From a virus: 16,300 bases of DNA. The stretch is taken from the UHGV virus genome UHGV-1567883. The stretch is one strand, 5' to 3'. Numbering within the stretch: the first letter of the stretch is position 1; each line of letters starts with the position of its first letter. The notes beneath the pieces were generated by a model, which did not search any database, was not told where the DNA came from, and worked only from the letters and a program-made list of their open reading frames with translations. A program made the translations under genes and the position numbers. This document shows positions 4,898 through 15,964 of this stretch, one piece after another.

Positions 4898-5220
4898 ACT
4901 TTCAGGCCCCTCTCATGTAACCAGTGGGCTGCACGCAGCCTGGCGTTCTCCTCACCGGCAAGCAGTGCGCGGATGATACCGACCGCTTCGCTGTCGTCGT
5001 CCTTCACTGCGGTATGAAGCGTTATCCCCCGGGCCACGCCACGCTTTATCGTGATGACGCCTTTTTTCTCCAGTGCGCGAAGATGCTCCACCGCTGCATT
5101 CACCGAACGGTATCCCAGCATGGTTGCCACCTCCTGATTGGTTGGCGGAAAGCCACGCTCTTGCTGGTAAGAAATCAGCATATCCAGCACCTGCTGCTGG
5201 CATTGAGTTAACGTCGTCAT
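4894..5220 (-). CDS. LexA N-terminal DNA-binding-domain homologue lacking the S24 peptidase domain
   Basis: 108 aa; LTQCQQQVLDMLISYQQERGFPPTNQEVATMLGYRSVNAAVEHLRALEKKGVITIKRGVARGITL aligns motif-for-motif with the LexA winged-helix domain. No Ser/Lys catalytic domain. Translationally coupled (ATGA) to dam upstream and rusA downstream. Confidence 0.7.
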   Translation of the reverse strand: MTTLTQCQQQVLDMLISYQQERGFPPTNQEVATMLGYRSVNAAVEHLRALEKKGVITIKRGVARGITLHTAVKDDDSEAVGIIRALLAGEENARLRAAHWLHERGLKV

Positions 5221-5870
5221 GCCGCCATCTCCCTGACAAGTTTTTCTGCCTGCTGGCGAACCTGCGCCAGAAACGCCTCACCACATGCCTCAAGTTCATC
5301 GCGCCCGATGTAGCTGATTGCCGGTCCCTTCCAGGTCTTGTCGAAAACAGCAATAGCACCAGCGAAGAAAGCGCCTGTCGGCACCTGCTTCTCATCCTTC
5401 GGGATAAACCAGGCAGGCAGTTCAAAACCAATACGCCCGCGAATAAAAGCAATATGGTCCGCATCTTCCGGCCACCACACTTCGCTGGTGGCAGCTTTGA
5501 TCAGGAAAACATAGCGCCCGCCCTTATCACGCATGGCACTGGCATGTTTCATGATGTAACGCATGCCGGTGATGTATTGCCCCTCATGCTGACTGGCGCG
5601 GCTGTATGGGGGATTACCAAAGGCAGCACCTTTAAGCTCCGCAAGACGTTCTGACCAGTCATGCGCCAGCGCGTTGTCTTCCGCCGTGTAATACGCGGCA
5701 CATTTGGCGTTATCACCGTCAGTGAACAGATCCAGAACAAACGGACCAAACAAGGTGTTAATTCCCCAGAAAATGTTGTCCGGCGTGCGCCACTGATCGC
5801 CCACTTCCTTCAGTTCATGGGCTGGTTTGTTCCGCAGTTCTACCAGCGCCTGGCAATATTTATTACTCAT
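5217..5870 (-). CDS. Phage-type DNA N6-adenine methyltransferase (small Dam-like family)
   Basis: 217 aa; FGNPPY catalytic motif; size and layout of the phage N-6-adenine methyltransferase family (compare CPS-53 yfdM). Confidence 0.8.
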   Translation of the reverse strand: MSNKYCQALVELRNKPAHELKEVGDQWRTPDNIFWGINTLFGPFVLDLFTDGDNAKCAAYYTAEDNALAHDWSERLAELKGAAFGNPPYSRASQHEGQYITGMRYIMKHASAMRDKGGRYVFLIKAATSEVWWPEDADHIAFIRGRIGFELPAWFIPKDEKQVPTGAFFAGAIAVFDKTWKGPAISYIGRDELEACGEAFLAQVRQQAEKLVREMAA

Positions 5871-5962
5871 TAAGCCCCCACGTAAAAAGCATCCGCAATG
5901 TCTCCGGAAGTACAGCCCGGATGGGCTTCAATGAATTTCTGAACGTCATTTAACAGACTCAT
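5870..5962 (-). CDS. Unannotated 30-codon ORF translationally coupled between the replication gene and dam
   Basis: ATG at 5962..5960 lies 2 nt after the O-like stop with GGGGG upstream; its TAA overlaps the dam ATG by 1 nt. Peptide MSLLNDVQKFIEAHPGCTSGDIADAFYVGA. Confidence 0.3.
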   Translation of the reverse strand: MSLLNDVQKFIEAHPGCTSGDIADAFYVGA

Positions 5963-5964
5963 GA

Positions 5965-6957
5965 TCACCCCCTGAATCCTGCCGGGATCTGGCTGTAGTC
6001 CACGTTGTCGTAACTGGCTTTGAAGTACGGGTCTTCACGTTTTTCTGTGTGCGTGCTGACGGACGGCGATAAGCGCAGGGAAAGCTCATCCCATTTTTCC
6101 CGCAACTTCGACGGGCTGAGCACGTTACGGCACCAGAACGGATCGCGGCTGACGCGGCTGTACATCTCGCAGATTTGTTTGTGAGTACGACCATCCTGCA
6201 CACACATCAGGCGAATTTCGTTTGCCCATGCTGTCCAGTTCGGTTCTTTGGGACGAACCACCTCGCCGTCACATTCGGCGGCCTGCTCGTACAGGGCGAT
6301 GATTTTTTTCCAGAGCCACTGTGCGCAGGTCAAATCATCCTGCGTTCCCCACTGGCGCTTTTTAGGGCTGAATACAACCGCATCAGGATGGCGAGTTAAA
6401 AACTCCTGTTCAGCCGTTTGCGTGTCCGGTTGCGAAGCGTCCGGACGAGAAGAGGTTTTATTCTCTGTAGTAATCTCTGTTGTATTCTCTGTAAGATCAT
6501 TGGGCCATTTTGACCCGATGACAGCGTGTCGTTTTGAACCAATGGATCGTGTCATTTTGCGCCCATCCATCAGGTCACTTTGACCCGATGGAGAAGTGCA
6601 TTTTGACCTGATGGATTCGTTCACTTTGACCTCTTCTAAAAGCTCACTTTCATAGTTGATCGTGTAGAAGTTGGTCATGTCACGCTTCGATTTATTGAGT
6701 TGCTCGCGACGCAAAACCCCAAGTGATTTCAGGCTTGCAAATGTGCGTTTCAGAGTGGACTCTGACCAGAACGGAAACTGCTCCAGCCACTGTTCTGTCG
6801 TGTTATAAACCCAGCGAATTCCGCCATGCTCAGTGCCTGAATTCGTTTCATTCAGCCAGTAATGAAGCTGCTGCAACACAATTGCCTCATTCAGACCAAT
6901 ACGGCATGCAAGATCACGATTTATCACAATGGGCTGGGATGTCATTAACAGGCTCAT
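5965..6957 (-). CDS. Replication initiator (lambda O-like role) with DnaT-like C-terminal domain; origin iterons inside the coding sequence
   Basis: 330 aa; N-terminal wHTH-like region; internal iterons encode repeated IGSK; the C-terminus ...YSQIPAGFRG resembles the E. coli DnaT C-terminus (...SQIPPGFRG, from recollection). SD GAGG 7 nt upstream of the ATG. Confidence 0.65.
   Translation of the reverse strand: MSLLMTSQPIVINRDLACRIGLNEAIVLQQLHYWLNETNSGTEHGGIRWVYNTTEQWLEQFPFWSESTLKRTFASLKSLGVLRREQLNKSKRDMTNFYTINYESELLEEVKVNESIRSKCTSPSGQSDLMDGRKMTRSIGSKRHAVIGSKWPNDLTENTTEITTENKTSSRPDASQPDTQTAEQEFLTRHPDAVVFSPKKRQWGTQDDLTCAQWLWKKIIALYEQAAECDGEVVRPKEPNWTAWANEIRLMCVQDGRTHKQICEMYSRVSRDPFWCRNVLSPSKLREKWDELSLRLSPSVSTHTEKREDPYFKASYDNVDYSQIPAGFRG
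6457..6494. repeat. Three tandem 12-bp AT-rich repeats (TTCTCTGTA-type) beside the iterons; candidate DNA unwinding element
   Basis: TTCTCTGTA at 6461, ATCTCTGTT at 6473, TTCTCTGTA at 6485 (12-bp period), inside the O-like gene. Confidence 0.55.
6506..6660. repeat. Iteron array (candidate phage origin of replication): 6-7 direct repeats, 23-24 bp period
   Basis: CATTTTGACCCGATGA 6506, CGTTTTGAACCAATGGA 6530, CATTTTGCGCCCATCCA 6553, CACTTTGACCCGATGGA 6576, CATTTTGACCTGATGGA 6599, CACTTTGACCTC 6622, degenerate CACTTTCAT 6645. Confidence 0.7.
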
Positions 6958-7126
6958 GACCGACCTCTATTTCCCTGAATTTACGACGAAACTGTTCGAG
7001 CGGACTGAAGCATTCATGTTCATAGCCTTCACGGAGGTAGATAACCCGTTGTGTTTCCGGCTCCCAACGAATGACTCTGACGGGCACTCCGTAGTGATCT
7101 TTGAACCAGCGGTTAACTTGTCGCAA
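6914..7126 (-). CDS. Small phage protein, DUF4222-like; TTG start with strong SD
   Basis: 70 aa; AAGGAG 8 nt upstream of the TTG; ...[30 protein letters not shown]... resembles DUF4222 proteins (recollection). Overlaps the O start by 44 nt and the 6967..7305 ORF in another frame. Confidence 0.45.
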
Positions 7127-7305
7127 AGGACTGTCTCCTTCTGCCGGTTGAAATCACCCACAGCCCACTCTGCAAAGCTGTGGGTTACAATTTCCCTGTC
7201 ACCTGGTACATTCACTGCATAGCAATACTCCACCTTCGCTTTTCCACCCGGTACAGGAAGCGCAATCAGTTGCGAGCGACGGTAGTGTGTTGTTAAACTG
7301 TTCAT
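6967..7305 (-). CDS. Hypothetical protein; conflicts with the overlapping 70-aa ORF
   Basis: 112 aa; ATG overlaps the upstream stop (ATGA) and its stop sits just before the O-gene SD, which is good operon geometry, but 160 nt overlap the 6914..7126 ORF. Confidence 0.4.
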
Positions 7306-7886
7306 GCGTTAGTTTCTCCACAACCAGAAGCAATCGACGCCACGACGCCCGGAGCTGCACACTCGCGGGCGTTACTCTTTTCCGGCGCACAAAAAACACG
7401 AAATAACAGTGTTAAATGCTCCTGCCACTTCGCCATTACTTGGTAGCTGTTCTCTTCGATTTGCTCACGCTCAGCCTGGTCAATAACTCCATCAGCAGTT
7501 GCCTTGCGTAAGTACTGGGAATGCTTGCCAATCCATTCTATTGACTCCATCAGCCGCTGATTAATGTCACCATTGTCAATGTCATCAATGACCACCAGCG
7601 GCACAAACACCCCATTACTACGACGGGCTATTGCATCTGTTACATGCCTGGTACCACTGGCATCCTGTAAAACCATGGCCCACTCAAGTGGAAAAATTTG
7701 ATCCCCACCGCTACGCAGTCTGTTATGCAATTGATCTTTTGCTGGGGTGATATCATCAGATTTATACAAACCAAGAATTTCTGCTGCTTCCTCATAGCCA
7801 TGAGGTAAATCAGCAATCGTTCTTCGTATTGCTGCCACCAGCCATGCTGGTTGTTTATCAACTTTCCATTCAGGTTCTTTACCCAC
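7302..7886 (-). CDS. Regulatory protein at the cII position (CII/CP76-like or YdaT-like; family uncertain)
   Basis: 194 aa; GTG start with GAGGAA 8 nt upstream; immediately downstream of the cro-like gene. Confidence 0.45.
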
Positions 7887-7913: not shown

Positions 7914-8111
7914 TTATGCCGCAGCACTGTTAGTCTTTTGATATAAAGACACGTCAACTTTCAGTTTCCCGTTAGTAATTTTTTCTAACTGGTACGCTCG
8001 GCCTTCAGGAATAATCTCAGGCCACTCTGAAACAGACGGATGCTTAATACCTAGGGCTTCGGCGGTTTTACAAACTCCGCCGAAATAATTAATCACGTCG
8101 GATTTCCGCAT
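7914..8111 (-). CDS. Cro-like repressor (YdaS/Cro family)
   Basis: 65 aa, divergent from the cI-like gene; GGGAGA SD upstream of the ATG; first gene of the minus-strand operon from the PR-like promoter. Confidence 0.7.
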   Translation of the reverse strand: MRKSDVINYFGGVCKTAEALGIKHPSVSEWPEIIPEGRAYQLEKITNGKLKVDVSLYQKTNSAAA

Positions 8112-8142: not shown

Positions 8143-8208
8143 AATGTAGGATATCCAACATGCCAATGTCAAGAATCCTACATTGGCATGTGGTAGGATT
8201 GCCTACAT
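8143..8208. promoter_or_regulatory. OR-like region: three 18-bp operator repeats plus PR-like promoter
   Basis: ATGTAGGATATCCAACAT 8144-8161; degenerate site 8166-8183 with perfect right half ATCCTACAT; TGGTAGGATTGCCTACAT 8191-8208. Minus-strand TTGACA (8172..8167), 18-nt spacer, TACATT (8148..8143) reading toward cro. Confidence 0.6.
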
Positions 8209-8860
8209 GATGAACATGAGTGATCGTATTCGCCAAAGGCGAAAAGAACTGAACCTGACACAACAAGCACTGGCTGATTTGACTGGTGTGAACCGTGTCA
8301 CGGTTACTGGATGGGAAAAGGACGACTACCAACCAAATGGAGCCAACCTTCAAGCCCTAGCCAACGCACTTAAATGCGATCCTCTGTGGCTTGTTAGCGG
8401 AAAAGGCTCGCCTGAACCAAAGATAAATCTAAAACCTGAAATATTCGCAGTTAAAAAAGTCCCCCTCATCTCGTGGGTTCAGGCGGGTTCATGGACAATG
8501 ACGGAGCCTGGTGTCAGGAAAGAAGATGCTGAAGAGTGGGTTTATACTACCGCCCTTGTATCAGAAATGGCATTTGCACTACGGGTCCGTGGTGATTCAA
8601 TGACCAATCCCCTCGGCTCACCATCGATACCAGAAGGTTCTATCGTTATCGTAGAGCCAGATATTATTGATACAGAGTGTATTAACGGAAAAATCGTTGT
8701 TGCCCATATCAATGGTGGGCAAGAAGCGACACTCAAAAAATTTGTTGAGGACTGGCCGAACAGGTATCTCGTCCCACTAAATCCTAACTATAAAACTATT
8801 GAATGCGGTGAGAACTGCAGAATAGTTGGTCTTGTCAAACAAGTAATAATGGATTTTTGA
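8207..8860 (+). CDS. CI-like prophage repressor (HTH_XRE N-terminus, S24 LexA-like autopeptidase C-terminus)
   Basis: HTH LNLTQQALADLTGVNRVTVTGWE; Ala-Gly cleavage site in VQAGSW; catalytic Ser in GDSM and Lys in ATLKK. The track start at 8183 is probably too long; ATGs at 8207/8210/8216 follow AGGA. Confidence 0.85.
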   Translation: MMNMSDRIRQRRKELNLTQQALADLTGVNRVTVTGWEKDDYQPNGANLQALANALKCDPLWLVSGKGSPEPKINLKPEIFAVKKVPLISWVQAGSWTMTEPGVRKEDAEEWVYTTALVSEMAFALRVRGDSMTNPLGSPSIPEGSIVIVEPDIIDTECINGKIVVAHINGGQEATLKKFVEDWPNRYLVPLNPNYKTIECGENCRIVGLVKQVIMDF

Positions 8861-11858: not shown

Positions 11859-12065
11859 ATGCTGAACCTCGATTGCGTTCCAATCTCAACTTATTGCAAA
11901 GAAACTGGCGAAACTCCTGAAGCAATAAACAAACGTGTACAGCGCGGTGTTTGGCGTGAAGGTGTTCAGGTTTTAAAGGTTGAAGGCGTTAAGGAGAGGT
12001 GGATTGATCTTAGTGAGGTTGCAAAATGGGCCAGACAAAACTGCTCAAACTACCGCGCGGCGTAA
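11859..12065 (+). CDS. xis: Excisionase (Xis-like winged helix)
   Basis: 68 aa from the ATG at 11859 (GTGGAGA SD); directly upstream of and overlapping int by 40 nt, as in lambda xis-int. Confidence 0.6.
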   Translation: MLNLDCVPISTYCKETGETPEAINKRVQRGVWREGVQVLKVEGVKERWIDLSEVAKWARQNCSNYRAA

Positions 12066-13192
12066 CAATCAGGAAACACCGCCAGGGCGAAACGATCAAT
12101 ATAACTTTCACCTACAAAGGAGTTAAATGTCGTGAGCCTCTTTCCAATCTGGAAGTAACACCAAAGAACATTAAATACGCCGAGCGCACACTCGGCGAAA
12201 TTCATAATAAGATCGAAAGGGGAACATTCATTTATGCGGAATATTTTCCCCGTTCTGCTCGTTTGAAAATTTTTGGTAATGCTGCTGCAGGCAAAACGGT
12301 AAAAATGTACCTGGACGAATACCTTGAAATCTGCGAAACGAGAAAACTTTCACCCTCTACGATTGGTGGTTATAAAAAATGCCGTAGTGCGTTAGCCTCA
12401 CTCCACATTTGCCCTGCAAGTGAATTAACACCAGCAATCCTGAAAGCGTGGATTCAAAGCCAGAAAACGACCTTAAAAACAATTCGCAACCAGTTATCTT
12501 TCCTGCGGTCAGCACTTGATGAAGCCGTAACCGATGGGGTACTTCAAATTAACCCCGTATCGTTGGTAACTGCTTCGCGCTACCAAAGTGATAAGTCAGA
12601 AGCAGAAAGCAGCTACGTGGTTGATCCGCTATCACCAGCAGAAGTTGATGCATTACTAACAGCAGCCGGAAACAAACAATGGGAGAATCTGTTCCGGTTC
12701 GCTATACATACAGGCCTGCGTAGTTCTGAATTATGTGCCCTTCGATGGCGTGATATCGACTTTGTTGGAAAAACTGCCCATGTCCAGAGCGCAAGTGTTG
12801 TCGGTGTTATCAAAGGAACAAAGACAAAAGCCGGTACTCGTAAAGTTGAACTGACAGAAGATGCAATGTTGGCGCTGATAAATCAGAAGCCATTTACATT
12901 CATGAAGGATGCTACTGTCTTTGAAGATCCAAAGACCAATAAGCCCTGGGCAAGTGCTGATGCAATCAGGAAAAAAGCATGGGTGCCAACATTGCGAAAA
13001 GCAGGTATTCGTTACAGAAATCCATATCAAACCAGGCATACATTCGCCACCCGCCATATCAGCCGGGGAGCAAACCTGTTTTGGCTTGCAGCTCAAATGG
13101 GGCATAAAGGGCCGGAGATGCTTTTCAGGCACTATGGCTCATATCTGAAGGAATATGATGGACAAACAAGCTTGAAGAAGATAACAATATAA
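12026..13192 (+). CDS. int: Tyrosine integrase (lambda Int family with N-terminal arm-binding domain)
   Basis: 388 aa; catalytic R in TGLRSSEL, H/R in QTRHTFATRH, Tyr in LFRHYGSY; GAGG SD 7 nt upstream. Confidence 0.9.
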   Translation: MGQTKLLKLPRGVTIRKHRQGETINITFTYKGVKCREPLSNLEVTPKNIKYAERTLGEIHNKIERGTFIYAEYFPRSARLKIFGNAAAGKTVKMYLDEYLEICETRKLSPSTIGGYKKCRSALASLHICPASELTPAILKAWIQSQKTTLKTIRNQLSFLRSALDEAVTDGVLQINPVSLVTASRYQSDKSEAESSYVVDPLSPAEVDALLTAAGNKQWENLFRFAIHTGLRSSELCALRWRDIDFVGKTAHVQSASVVGVIKGTKTKAGTRKVELTEDAMLALINQKPFTFMKDATVFEDPKTNKPWASADAIRKKAWVPTLRKAGIRYRNPYQTRHTFATRHISRGANLFWLAAQMGHKGPEMLFRHYGSYLKEYDGQTSLKKITI

Positions 13193-13250
13193 TCCAAGCA
13201 TGAAACTATTGGCCACAATTTGTGGCCATTTTACGGAGCAAGATAGAAAC

Positions 13251-14984
13251 ATGGCAAATCAAATTACCAAACTAAAAAATATAAATGTTGTGAAGTTTCG
13301 CGGACTGAAAAATATAAACATCGAGTTTGGTTCTCGCCTAACTGTTATTTGTGGTAAAAATGGCACATCTAAATCCACAATTCTTGGCATTATCGCCCAA
13401 ATATTTAGCTTTACAAAGGACTTTACCAAAAACCCTGAGACTGATTTAACACAATATAAAACATTAACAAATGGCAGCTTCAAGTCAGCTTTCAGCGAAC
13501 ATTTTAGGCTTTCAGAACAATTTGATGTTCCTGGTTCAATGGACGTCAAAATTAGTGTCTATGATGGTGCATCGAACAAACATCTTGAAAAACTAACATT
13601 AGGTTTATACAGCTACAGTGACAGAGATAAATCTAGGCCTGTAGTCAGGGGAAATGATTCAATACCGGAAAAAAACCAAAGTAGAAACGTTACTCATCCT
13701 GTTATTTTTTTAAGCTTAGCACGACTTCTTCCTATTACATTAAGGACTGATTACTCAACACGGGATGTTCAGTACATCAATGAAAATTCTGATGAAATCA
13801 GAATGATGAGTAACCAACTCTTACTAAAAAACAATGGAAGCTCAGTAACAGCAACAAAAGGTACTATCGATTCAATGGTTGTCCATGGTGACAATTATGA
13901 TCACCAATCAGTATCTGTTGGTGAAGATAATGTTGGACAATTAATCCAGGCAATTTTTTCATTTAAAAGATTGAAGGAAACTTATTCTGATTATCATGGC
14001 GGAATATTGTTAATTGATGAAGCCGATGCAGGTCTTTTCCCTGCGGCACAGTTAGAGCTAATTAATATTCTAACTAAAGCAGCAAAACAATACGATCTGC
14101 AAATAATCATGACCTCGCACTCTCCATTAATAATAGAGGATATCTATAATCGTTCAAAACAAGATAGTGATAGCTTTAAAACAATATATCTTACAGACAC
14201 ATATGGAGATATTAAAACAAAGAATAATCTTTCATGGACAGATATCCACGCTGATTTACATGTTGAAACTGTAAAAATTAATGATGACATTTGTCTTCCA
14301 AAGGCAAATGTATATTTTGAAGACAAAGAAGGTTTCGACTTTTTCAAACAATTGATAACAGATCGAAAAATAAATAAAATATTAAATCCATTAGGAAATA
14401 TAAATATTAGCTGCTCTGCCATGCTTGACTTAATGGCAAGAAAAATACCAGAATTTACAGCTAAAAGCTTGATCGTCTTAGACGGTGATGTTGTTCACGA
14501 CAACAGTGCTAATGCAAAAAAAGCCAAAAAAGAAAAAAACTTATGTTTGCTTCCAAGCACCTTACCTCCAGACCAAATGATTTTTGAGTTTTTATATAAT
14601 TTACCACCTGATGATGCATATTGGGAAAATAAAAATAAATTTACAAAAGCTGTTTTTATGAAAACAGCTAAAGACATAATTGCAACGCTAAAGATTGGTA
14701 ACGCTCCGATTGATTTAAAAATCCTTATAGATAATTATAAAAAAGTTAACAAAAACCATGGAGGGAGAGTTAGAAAACTGTTTAAAGATTTTGCACATAC
14801 GACTCAATTTCAGGCCCAAGTCAAAGGAAGAGTTAAAGATAACCCATATCGATATTGGGTCGAGAAAAATCCTGTTCAATCGGATAGCTTCAAGAATGAA
14901 CTAATAAAGAGTCTTAAAGTTATTATGATAAGTGGACATGGTGTCGATTCTGCTACCATCTCATCATATCTGTCAGATAACTAA
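13251..14984 (+). CDS. OLD-family-like nuclease candidate: N-terminal ABC-type ATPase plus C-terminal TOPRIM-like domain
   Basis: Walker A CGKNGTSKST (nt 13350-13379), Walker B/D-loop ILLIDEAD (14014-14028), H-loop TSHSP (14112-14126), TOPRIM-like EGFD (14328-14339) and LIVLDGD (DxD at 14481-14489). The gene is visibly AT-rich. Alternative start at 13200. Confidence 0.7.
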   Translation: MANQITKLKNINVVKFRGLKNINIEFGSRLTVICGKNGTSKSTILGIIAQIFSFTKDFTKNPETDLTQYKTLTNGSFKSAFSEHFRLSEQFDVPGSMDVKISVYDGASNKHLEKLTLGLYSYSDRDKSRPVVRGNDSIPEKNQSRNVTHPVIFLSLARLLPITLRTDYSTRDVQYINENSDEIRMMSNQLLLKNNGSSVTATKGTIDSMVVHGDNYDHQSVSVGEDNVGQLIQAIFSFKRLKETYSDYHGGILLIDEADAGLFPAAQLELINILTKAAKQYDLQIIMTSHSPLIIEDIYNRSKQDSDSFKTIYLTDTYGDIKTKNNLSWTDIHADLHVETVKINDDICLPKANVYFEDKEGFDFFKQLITDRKINKILNPLGNINISCSAMLDLMARKIPEFTAKSLIVLDGDVVHDNSANAKKAKKEKNLCLLPSTLPPDQMIFEFLYNLPPDDAYWENKNKFTKAVFMKTAKDIIATLKIGNAPIDLKILIDNYKKVNKNHGGRVRKLFKDFAHTTQFQAQVKGRVKDNPYRYWVEKNPVQSDSFKNELIKSLKVIMISGHGVDSATISSYLSDN

Positions 14985-14996
14985 TTGATTAAAAAA

Positions 14997-15030
14997 GGGT
15001 TTTATGTGATGGCCATAAAGCCCTTTTTTT
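14997..15030 (+). terminator. Strong intrinsic terminator between the OLD-like gene and the Dam-family MTase gene
   Basis: 10-bp stem GGGTTTTATG / CATAAAGCCC (one G-U pair), 7-nt loop, then a 7-T run. Confidence 0.75.
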
Positions 15031-15064
15031 GATATACTTTAGATCTGACATTTAGAGGTATCAT
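15029..15064 (+). promoter_or_regulatory. Candidate extended -10 promoter and SD of the Dam-family MTase gene, overlapping a GATC
   Basis: TGaTATACT extended -10 (15030-15038); AGATCT with GATC at 15042-15045 near the predicted start; SD AGAGG 15054-15058; ATG 15065. Confidence 0.35.
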
Positions 15065-15964
15065 ATGCGTTTTAACACCCCACTTCGCTATCCTGGCGGT
15101 AAAGGCAAGCTTGCAAATTTCATGCTTCGGATTATTGAAGAAAATAATCTTTCGCCTATACATTATGCCGAACCATATGCTGGGGGTGCTGGTTTAGCAT
15201 TGAAACTGTTACATCTAAATGCAGCTGAAAAAATCATCCTTAATGATATTAATATTTCTGTTTATGCTTTTTGGCACAGTGTATTAAATCATGCAGATCA
15301 ATTATGTTCTTTAATTGAAAGAACAGAAGTTACAATGGATGAATGGTTTAGGCAGAAAGATATAATTAATAATCCTAAAGACCATGATCTTTTAACAATT
15401 GGTTTCTCAACCTTTTTTCTCAATAGAACAAATCGTTCTGGAATATTAAAAGGTGGAGTAATTGGCGGTAAAAATCAAGAAGGGAAATGGAAGCTTGACG
15501 CTCGCTATAATAAGAGTGATTTGATTTCTCGAATCCATAAAATATCAGAAAATCGTCACAGAATAGATTTATATAACATGGATGCAATTGATTTCATTAA
15601 AAAAATAGTTACTCAATTGCCACAAAACTCATTAACATATTTGGATCCACCTTATTACATAAAAGGTAAAGGTTTATATATCAACCATTATGATCATGAT
15701 GATCATGTTAGGGTTGCAAAAGTCGTACAGAATAATATTAAAACACCTTGGATTGTTTCTTACGATAACACTCCTGAGATCCAAGCTATGTATAAGACAT
15801 CATCATTAGTATATGGAATAAACTACAGTGCTCAAGATCGGTACAAAGGATCTGAGGTAATGTTCTTCAGTGAACGATTGAAAATCTTTAAAACAGATGA
15901 TCCAACTAAGGTAAAAGCGCCTGTATTTAAAAGAGGATGTGTTGACGACCACATCCAGACATAA
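15065..15964 (+). CDS. Dam-family (D12 class) DNA N6-adenine methyltransferase
   Basis: 299 aa; aligns by motif to E. coli Dam: PGGK near the N-terminus, SAM motif EPYAGGAG, NRTNRSG region, catalytic DPPY. AT-rich. Confidence 0.85.
   Translation: MRFNTPLRYPGGKGKLANFMLRIIEENNLSPIHYAEPYAGGAGLALKLLHLNAAEKIILNDINISVYAFWHSVLNHADQLCSLIERTEVTMDEWFRQKDIINNPKDHDLLTIGFSTFFLNRTNRSGILKGGVIGGKNQEGKWKLDARYNKSDLISRIHKISENRHRIDLYNMDAIDFIKKIVTQLPQNSLTYLDPPYYIKGKGLYINHYDHDDHVRVAKVVQNNIKTPWIVSYDNTPEIQAMYKTSSLVYGINYSAQDRYKGSEVMFFSERLKIFKTDDPTKVKAPVFKRGCVDDHIQT

Follow-up and report, generated by a model that had tools for sequence, protein, structure and literature searches.

How does a common type of Escherichia coli prophage start its own replication, and where? 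The question is raised by a 16,300-nucleotide stretch of the virus genome UHGV-1567883 (hereafter, the window), which carries the region for immunity and replication of a lambdoid E. coli prophage and in which the gene for a putative O-like replication initiator of 330 amino acids carries direct repeats within its own coding sequence. An origin made of iterons and a low-stability tract inside the gene of its initiator is a textbook arrangement. We consider it highly likely that positions 6459-6634 of the window are the replication origin of this prophage, a theta-type, lambda-like origin located in the linker-coding part of the initiator gene, where the N-terminal domain (N-domain) of the initiator would bind the iterons, the resulting complex would melt an adjacent block of 12-mers and the C-terminal domain (C-domain) would recruit the host helicase. 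An origin-like array had already been proposed here from the letters of the sequence (the original prediction). The present analysis goes beyond it in placing the DNA-binding domain in a family of the DnaD/RepA class that has no annotation, rather than in the lambda O class, in pointing, by sequence comparison, to a cassette of N-domain, iterons and 12-mers conserved among phages of both Gram-negative and Gram-positive bacteria, and in recognizing a conserved sequence motif in the 12-mers.

The repeats form two arrays, with periods of 23 (6575-6632) and 12 (6462-6493), as delimited by Tandem Repeats Finder. For the longer period, a repeat finder returned five 23-nt copies at spacings of 24, 23, 23 and 23, and the core TCAYTTTGAMC was found on the plus strand at 6505, 6529, 6552, 6575, 6598 and 6621. 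These matches define six good iterons within 6500-6634, numbered here along the coding strand and spaced on it by 23, 23, 23, 23 and 24 bp (Table 1). A weak copy, in phase with the others, matches 7 of the 11 core bases, lies 23 bp from the core at 6621 and overlaps the end of the N-domain coding sequence. The six to seven iterons at a 23-bp period of the original prediction can hence be resolved into six good copies and a weak seventh, at spacings of 23-24 bp. The proposed extent runs from 6506 to about 6660, but the solid array ends at about 6634, and the 17-mer proposed as the repeat, CAYTTTGACCNGATGGA, is exact in only two copies. With up to three mismatches it matches five times, once in inverted orientation and always within 6506-6615, compared to an expectation of 0.31 matches; none of 200 shuffles reached five. 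Each iteron consists of a short dyad, GGTCA-AAA-TGACC, which is centered on an A-tract and extended to one side by a longer arm, TCCATC. The near-palindromic character of iteron 3 is evident from an inverted repeat, from the minus-strand match to the 17-mer and from a 12-bp hairpin; when the array is folded as a single strand, no other hairpin forms and the 12-mers are unstructured. The array as a whole spans codons 108-167 of 330, between an N-domain that ends at about residue 107 and an ordered C-domain that starts at about residue 180.

The block that follows the iterons consists of three tandem 12-mers, which the repeat finder placed at 6459-6470, 6471-6482 and 6483-6494. This block (6459-6496, about 40 bp) has a GC content of 30%, with 50% A on the coding strand, and is the least stable duplex among the 36-50-bp segments of the gene (rank 1 of about 950). 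Such low stability fits an unwinding element.

Iterons bound by the initiator could also serve control, through autoregulation, titration (handcuffing) or superinfection exclusion, with replication starting elsewhere. Double roles of this kind are described for plasmid iterons (PMC3401445), and lambda origin DNA, when cloned, is described as inhibitory to phage that share its replication type (PMC3349717, PMC4488673); moreover, helicase loading can be assigned to no gene of the window. Nonetheless, a conserved low-stability repeat block directly follows the array in every relative examined, which is the anatomy of an initiation site, scans with the 17-mer and with the core motif detected no second iteron cluster elsewhere in the 16.3-kb window, and in lambda, pSK41 and SPP1 oriL the in-gene array is the origin. 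A purely regulatory role of the iterons thus appears unlikely.

The original prediction had named absence of the repeats from homologous prophages as grounds for its rejection. We found them conserved: the iterons are kept in register in HannyBb and mEp460_ev081 (71% protein identity), as well as in Klebsiella and IMG/VR types (81-83% identity in the N-domain). Both arrays, iterons and 12-mers, are retained by relatives at 71-81% identity. The diversity of relatives was drawn from tblastn searches against phage records, a scan of viral contigs having yielded mostly identical copies. The N-domain alone retrieved 123 phage records, of which we read 13, with N-domains 29-81% identical to that of the window and with hosts in Klebsiella, Pantoea, Erwinia, Pseudomonas, Staphylococcus, Bacillus, Listeria, Lactobacillus, Stenotrophomonas, Burkholderia, Vibrio and Bacteroides. 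All 13 present a repeat array directly after the N-domain, with a best period of 21-24 bp except in Pseudomonas phage AF, and most share the iteron form nnnCAAAWTGnnn, even though their flanking genes are entirely different. The relatives with N-domains at 29-63% identity, which come from 10 other host genera, all have the array at the same place. Across these phages, the sequence comparison identifies the N-domain as the only constant partner of the array.

This distribution bears on whether the repeats are instead sites for another protein, be it a host factor or the cII-like, DUF4222 or KilA-N proteins. The conservation of the 12-mer motif CAGAGAnTA across hosts, while iterons vary, would fit a partner other than the reader of the iterons. 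Across phages of Escherichia, Pseudomonas, Staphylococcus, Bacillus, Lactobacillus, Vibrio and Bacteroides, however, the N-domain is the sole constant neighbor of the repeats, and the array changes when the N-domain changes, making a reader other than the initiator very unlikely.

The exchange of N-domain and array is seen most directly in the copies carried by SfII, SfIV and K-12-derived prophages, which match the gene in two pieces only and are about 97% identical in DNA over its C-terminal half. The SfII N-domain belongs to a different family, HTH_36, and the SfII gene, which lacks CAGAGA 12-mers, presents at the same position a different array, in which GATTTTGACGGGTCA recurs at a period of 15 bp. 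The NEB5-alpha F'Iq copy matches window positions 5900-6467, and the protein alignment with SfII-type copies diverges upstream of SRPDASQPD. Since the homology breaks just past the 12-mers and SfII carries a replacement of the whole segment, N-domain, iterons and 12-mers appear to move as one cassette. The same pattern could mean that the 12-mer block is mainly a recombination linker that joins cassettes of N-domain and iterons to various C-domains, and not an unwinding element. The type of C-domain does switch right after the block (lambda-O-like, Phg_2220_C or DnaD/DnaB_2), and homology to SfII-type and K-12-derived copies does start at about 6457-6467. Yet such a role leaves unexplained the tandem repetition at 10-12 bp, the low stability and the strand asymmetry of the block, as well as its fixed place beside iterons in phages unable to exchange DNA, such as those of Staphylococcus and Pseudomonas, and SfII-type genes join the same C-domain without the block. 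While the two roles are compatible, we consider it highly improbable that the block is mainly a linker for recombination.

Several lines of evidence indicate that the repeats are constrained as DNA, as judged from their sequence. Because the iteron period is 23 bp, consecutive copies fall in all three reading frames, and the array is therefore not a peptide repeat: successive iterons are translated on the coding strand as EEVKVN, SIRSKC, PSGQSD, DGRKMT, SIGSKR and VIGSKW. The original prediction had described the repeats as IGSK and TE(N/I)T peptide repeats of the initiator; IGSK does recur in copies that share a frame, but the others are read in the two remaining frames (PSGQSD, DGRKMT, EEVKVN). 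In a codon alignment of six representative genes (those of the window, HannyBb, Kp4882-3 and three IMG/VR types), 23 of the 27 codons for invariant amino acids in the origin segment have invariant third positions, compared to 21 of 70 in the N-domain (Fisher P = 9e-7), whereas at the amino acid level the origin segment is the less conserved of the two (28/59, compared to 76/108 in the N-domain). Conservation tracks the phase of the iteron, with a near-invariant CAAA.TGA core and TCCA arm and variable spacer phases 14-18. The prediction of disorder for the linker that the repeats encode (pLDDT of about 25 over residues 108-178) also points to a constraint on the DNA.

The 12-mers are likewise, on sequence comparison, a conserved DNA motif, CAGAGAnTA, and not merely an AT-rich tract. 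The three 12-bp AT-rich repeats of the original prediction (6457-6494) are thus borne out as three 12-mers (6459-6494), but not as a segment defined by composition alone. All 36 nt of the block are identical in HannyBb, whose gene has 78% DNA identity, and two to four copies of CAGAGAnTA, 10-12 bp apart, occur in phages infecting Escherichia, Klebsiella, Pantoea, Erwinia, Pseudomonas (58-60% GC), Bacillus and Lactobacillus, with one exact and one degenerate copy in Staphylococcus phage 96 (34% GC). The motif is hence kept, wobble positions included, in phages of 34-60% GC, and more distant N-domains are followed at the same position by 12-mers with CCAGAT or ACAGAT. A comparison of GAG and GAA codons for Glu in blocks defined by CAGAGA is partly circular, and we relied instead on blocks defined by the peptide TExT and on unit spacing in Bacillus phage TP21-L. 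Every Glu codon in TExT blocks is GAG, even in phages of 58-60% GC, and the Thr codons are ACA or ACT, including in genes that otherwise use ACC or ACG almost throughout (8:0 in the block versus 0:14 elsewhere in PEp14). The CAGAGA units of TP21-L, at spacings of 11 and 10 bp, are hence read in different frames. That the repeats are a flexible linker at the protein level or neutral slippage products, with no function of their own as DNA, is suggested by the low-complexity, predicted disordered linker that they encode and by variation of copy number among strains (a 23-bp deletion in locus L064, a 15-nt insertion in locus L070), but the probability of this explanation is close to negligible given a 23-bp period read in three frames, nucleotides more conserved than amino acids, TP21-L units in different frames, Glu codons in TExT blocks that are always GAG even at 58-60% GC, and the cost of neutral slippage in a gene that is frameshifted by the loss of one unit.

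The arithmetic of the period has a further consequence, as gain or loss of a single 23-bp iteron frameshifts the initiator. Locus L064 (1798-1960) carries an exact deletion of one iteron and encodes a product of 119 amino acids; in L063 (1798-2020), one A has been lost from the A-run of iteron 4, leaving a product of 134 amino acids; the 15-nt insertion of L070 lies in 1798-2035. Among database proteins of the initiator family (P0124-P0155), many either are truncated or have their 12-mers translated in the +1 frame (LQRIQQRLLQR). Frameshifts by iteron gain or loss may be a common route to replication-dead prophages.

The initiator itself is 100% identical to a protein (P0001) that bears the NCBI name 'hypothetical protein'. 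No Pfam or NCBIfam model reaches threshold on it, and its N-domain has no Pfam match even at E<=10. A sequence search of the PDB assigned it to no family and gave no match to RepA, and an N-domain profile run against PDB sequences returned only winged-helix regulators, weakly (E>=0.03). Residues 147-294, by contrast with this N-domain, align with residues 135-270 of lambda O at 33% identity over 148 amino acids (BLASTP, E=1e-26), while comparison of the N-domain with that of lambda O (Phage_rep_O) gave an hhalign probability of 0.2 and no Phage_rep_O match was found. The full-length AlphaFold2 model, built from a shallow alignment and with a predicted local distance difference test score (pLDDT) of 53, was used for its pattern of order and disorder only; it predicts a disordered linker. 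The predicted fold of the N-domain is a winged helix, closest to staphylococcal RepA and to the DnaD/DnaB primosome class. The initiator is thus a chimera, in which a DNA-binding domain of the DnaD/RepA class, together with its origin, is joined to an effector domain of the lambda O type. Elsewhere, the same cassette of N-domain and origin is joined to Phg_2220_C or DnaD/DnaB_2 domains; the DnaD/DnaB_2 C-domain (PF07261/TIGR01446) is present in the Staphylococcus phage 96 homolog and absent from the window protein.

Enterobacterial members of the initiator family end in a tail with the motif (I/V)PxGFR(G/S), whatever their C-domain (lambda-O-like or, in L004, Phg_2220_C), as seen in the window, in L004 and L008, and in L067-L091 among the IMG/VR loci, and the Lactobacillus mv4 ORF292 ends in DDDLPF, resembling the tail of SSB, the protein that binds single-stranded DNA. 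These tails may act as short linear motifs that engage a replication partner of the host, which would be relevant here because no helicase-loader gene is present.

Initiation at this origin would proceed in a few steps. Transcription from a pR-like promoter would yield the 330-residue initiator and pass through the origin, and the N-terminal winged helix, probably in dimeric form, would then bind the 23-bp iterons, six or seven in number. The nucleoprotein complex would bend or wrap the DNA and destabilize the adjacent three 12-mers, the putative unwinding element, in which CAGAGAnTA might also be contacted sequence-specifically once single-stranded. Finally, the lambda-O-like C-domain, with or without the extra tail, would bring in the host helicase. 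We also entertain, as a tentative and rather doubtful idea drawn by analogy with DnaA-trios and the RK2 13-mers, that the 12-mers are a sequence-specific element that has travelled with the DnaD/RepA-like winged helix through phages of Proteobacteria and Firmicutes, and that would be read on one strand, after melting, by the initiator or by a universally conserved host replication factor. If true, reading of one strand could explain how a one-gene module devoid of a loader opens DNA and passes it to the host helicase.

A number of points weigh against the assignment of 6459-6634 as an origin that works in this manner. Among the genes of the window, none has a family match to a P-, DnaC- or DnaB-like loader or helicase, and in lambda the O-type C-domain works through P; such a gene is also absent beside the initiator gene in SfII, HannyBb and mEp460. 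DnaA boxes are not enriched in the window, and none lies near the array. The 12-mer block is short (about 40 bp, 30% GC), and its instability ranks only within the top 3-5% when considered across the whole window. The six genes used in the synonymous-site comparison are related, and recombination history could inflate that statistic, although the phase-dependent pattern of conservation argues weakly (P = 0.05) against such inflation. The support as a whole is computational. Lastly, a recognition code of one residue, relating residue 67 (S/D/R/N) to the base preceding CAAAWTG (T/G/A/C), fits 16 of 16 phage loci, but counter-examples (such as P0172) emerged with proteins from database matches used as a proxy, many of those matches being frameshifted, and the code was dropped as unreliable. 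Residue 67 lies in the S-x-X-T segment of residues 65-68 (about 6754-6765), where the predicted recognition helix begins.

Among known systems, lambda is the closest in layout. Its origin is likewise placed midway along the initiator gene, with iterons at codons 117-145 of 299 followed by an A-rich tract according to the lambda annotation, and lambdoid phages, among them Stx phages with six iterons, and the window type have in common four to six dyad-symmetric iterons around an A-tract, spaced by 20-24 bp in that annotation. The A-rich, low-stability tract is found in both on the transcription-downstream side, so that the order of iterons and AT-rich tract proposed in the original prediction by analogy with lambda ori is confirmed on the coding strand. 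In both, the module is read from pR (in the window, a predicted pR-like promoter), N-domain and origin form a type-specific cassette, and the C-domain is homologous. A published description of lambdoid origins agrees with the layout reported here; lambda O is there reported to bind A/T-rich single-stranded DNA (PMC7466680). Unlike in lambda, however, the DNA-binding domain at the N-terminus has no sequence relationship to that of lambda O, the iterons differ (GGTCAAAATGAC in the window versus TCCCTCAAAACGAGGGA in lambda), the low-stability tract is built from three 12-mers whose motif is conserved across phyla, a P gene does not follow and the protein has an extra IPAGFRG tail.

The DNA-binding half of the module finds its parallel in the RepA_N plasmids of Firmicutes, which share with the window a winged-helix N-terminal domain of the DnaD/RepA class and repeats in the center of their own gene. 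In pSK41, the RepA_N winged-helix N-terminal domain binds Rep boxes central in its own rep gene, the central linker encoded by the origin is dispensable and the C-terminal domain is host-specific, and in pPR9 the N-terminal domain and origin have been swapped together for a phage-type HTH_36 domain, the Pfam family of the SfII N-domain (PMC5703833). The window protein differs in having no Pfam match to RepA_N (PF06970), with 9% identity in structural alignment, and in belonging to a phage and not a plasmid; its C-domain is of the lambda O type instead of a DnaG-binding helical domain, and it is set in a lambdoid immunity region instead of under antisense RNA control.

Closer relatives of the N-domain are found in phages with DnaD-like initiators. 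Staphylococcus phages 96, 42E and phiIPLA88, Bacillus TP21-L and Lactobacillus mv4 (ORF292) share it at 43-46% identity by alignment and 44-51% by tblastn, and present 22-23-bp iterons of the form nnnCAAAWTGnnn followed by CAGAGAnTA repeats, as in the window. These phages differ in the DnaD/DnaB_2 C-domain, followed by genes for a helicase loader and a DnaB-like helicase, where the window has a lambda-O-like C-domain. By layout, the window can also be likened to oriL of SPP1, in which direct repeats, together with an AT-rich unwinding element, lie within gene 38 (PMC6316719). Short tandem repeats in a low-stability region beside iterons are further shared with RK2 oriV/TrfA, F/RepE and oriC. 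Origin activity of RK2 oriV requires all of its 13-mers, as does binding of the winged-helix Rep protein to one strand of the unwinding element after melting (PMC4081077), and by analogy the 13-mers offer a plausible model for the sequence conservation of CAGAGAnTA. In contrast to RK2 and F, however, the units in the window are 12-mers of another sequence, and the initiator has one winged helix and a linker where TrfA and RepE have two winged helices. No paper describing this origin type, or the origin in the phages with DnaD-like initiators, was found in the searchable literature, in which subscription journals were not covered, and this counts as weak evidence.

Table 1. Features of the initiator gene, the putative origin and the surrounding prophage region (positions in the window)
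Feature	Position	Strand	Sequence or basis
Weak in-phase seventh copy	6644-6654	-	TCACTTTCATA (plus strand)
Iteron 1	6616-6634	-	agaggtCAAAGTGaacgaa
Iteron 2	6593-6611	-	tcaggtCAAAATGcacttc
Iteron 3, 27-bp near-palindrome	6566-6592	.	TCCATCAGGTCA-CTT-TGACCCGATGGA
Iteron 4, left arm most degenerate	6547-6565	-	tgggcgCAAAATGacacga
Iteron 5	6524-6542	-	ttggttCAAAACGacacgc
Iteron 6, adjoining the 12-mer block	6500-6518	-	tcgggtCAAAATGgcccaa
Three tandem 12-mers, candidate unwinding element	6459-6494	-	TTACAGAGAATA / CAACAGAGATTA / CTACAGAGAATA (coding strand)
Mosaic junction	6457-6467	.	Lower coordinates about 97% identical to SfII-type/K-12-derived copies; N-domain and origin cassette upstream differs
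'Replication initiation O-like' gene, 330 amino acids	5965-6957	-	Open reading frame list and translation; phrog_391, E=1e-101
N-terminal winged-helix domain, residues 1-107, presumed iteron-binding	6637-6957	-	
Inter-domain linker, residues 108-178, DNA carries the putative origin	6424-6636	-	pLDDT about 25
C-terminal domain, lambda O-homologous	6070-6423	-	BLASTP
C-terminal tail, residues 297-330, ends IPAGFRG, lambda O without it	5968-6069	-	Low pLDDT
Small conserved gene	6967-7305	-	
cII-like gene	7302-7886	-	
P22-Cro-like gene	7914-8111	-	
pR-like promoter	8143-8172	-	TTGACA-18-TACATT; consensus scan only
cI-like repressor gene	8183-8860	+	
Integrase gene, end of the other (left) arm	12026-13192		

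Family scans establish the gene order as cI, cro, cII-like and O-like, and the predicted transcript of the pR-like promoter would cover cro, the cII-like gene, the small conserved gene and the initiator gene, running through the origin. The minus-strand genes after the initiator encode Dam, a protein resembling the LexA DNA-binding domain, RusA, KilA-N, DUF968/HNH and Q, and scans of the window for Rfam families and tRNAs gave no match. In SfII, SfIV and other E. coli prophages, the O-family gene has a neighbor annotated as yfdN. In mEp460_4F5 and SfII, a PerC/yfdN-like gene of about 160 codons lies between the initiator gene and dam; in the window only 94 bp (5871-5964) separate the two, and the PerC/yfdN-like gene has apparently been deleted. 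Two mechanically called open reading frames are probably spurious: one of 111 amino acids (6248-6583, plus strand), antisense to the origin region, and one of 170 amino acids (4952-5464, minus strand), which overlaps dam and has no family match.

Three DNA methyltransferases are encoded in the 16.3-kb window, namely an N6_N4_Mtase (100-1152), the phage Dam (5217-5870) and a D12-class enzyme (15065-15964), and GATC occurs at 6495, 6545 and 6658, in or beside the origin, among 68 sites across the window. The D12-class N6-adenine methyltransferase, which matches PADLOC PD-Lambda-5_B (E=2e-124), belongs to an AT-rich gene pair beyond the integrase gene (13200-15964), the other member of which encodes a 594-residue AAA_15/PtuA-like ATPase (13200-14984). 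This pair is probably a defense system of the PD-lambda-5 type at the prophage end.

The closest phage record to the window is mEp460_4F5 (98% identity), and E. coli 13E0780 holds a copy that is 100% identical. Of 5426 complete genomes, 157 contain the full-length type and 3592 contain parts of it. For this common E. coli prophage type, whose initiator has gone by the name of a hypothetical protein, the analysis thus locates a highly likely origin together with its specificity cassette. The conserved 12-mer motif in the putative unwinding region and a lambda-O-type C-domain that would operate without a P gene provide handles for experiments. More broadly, the comparisons point to an initiator-plus-origin module of phages of Gram-negative and Gram-positive bacteria that would aid annotation and replication typing as well as the prediction of origins.

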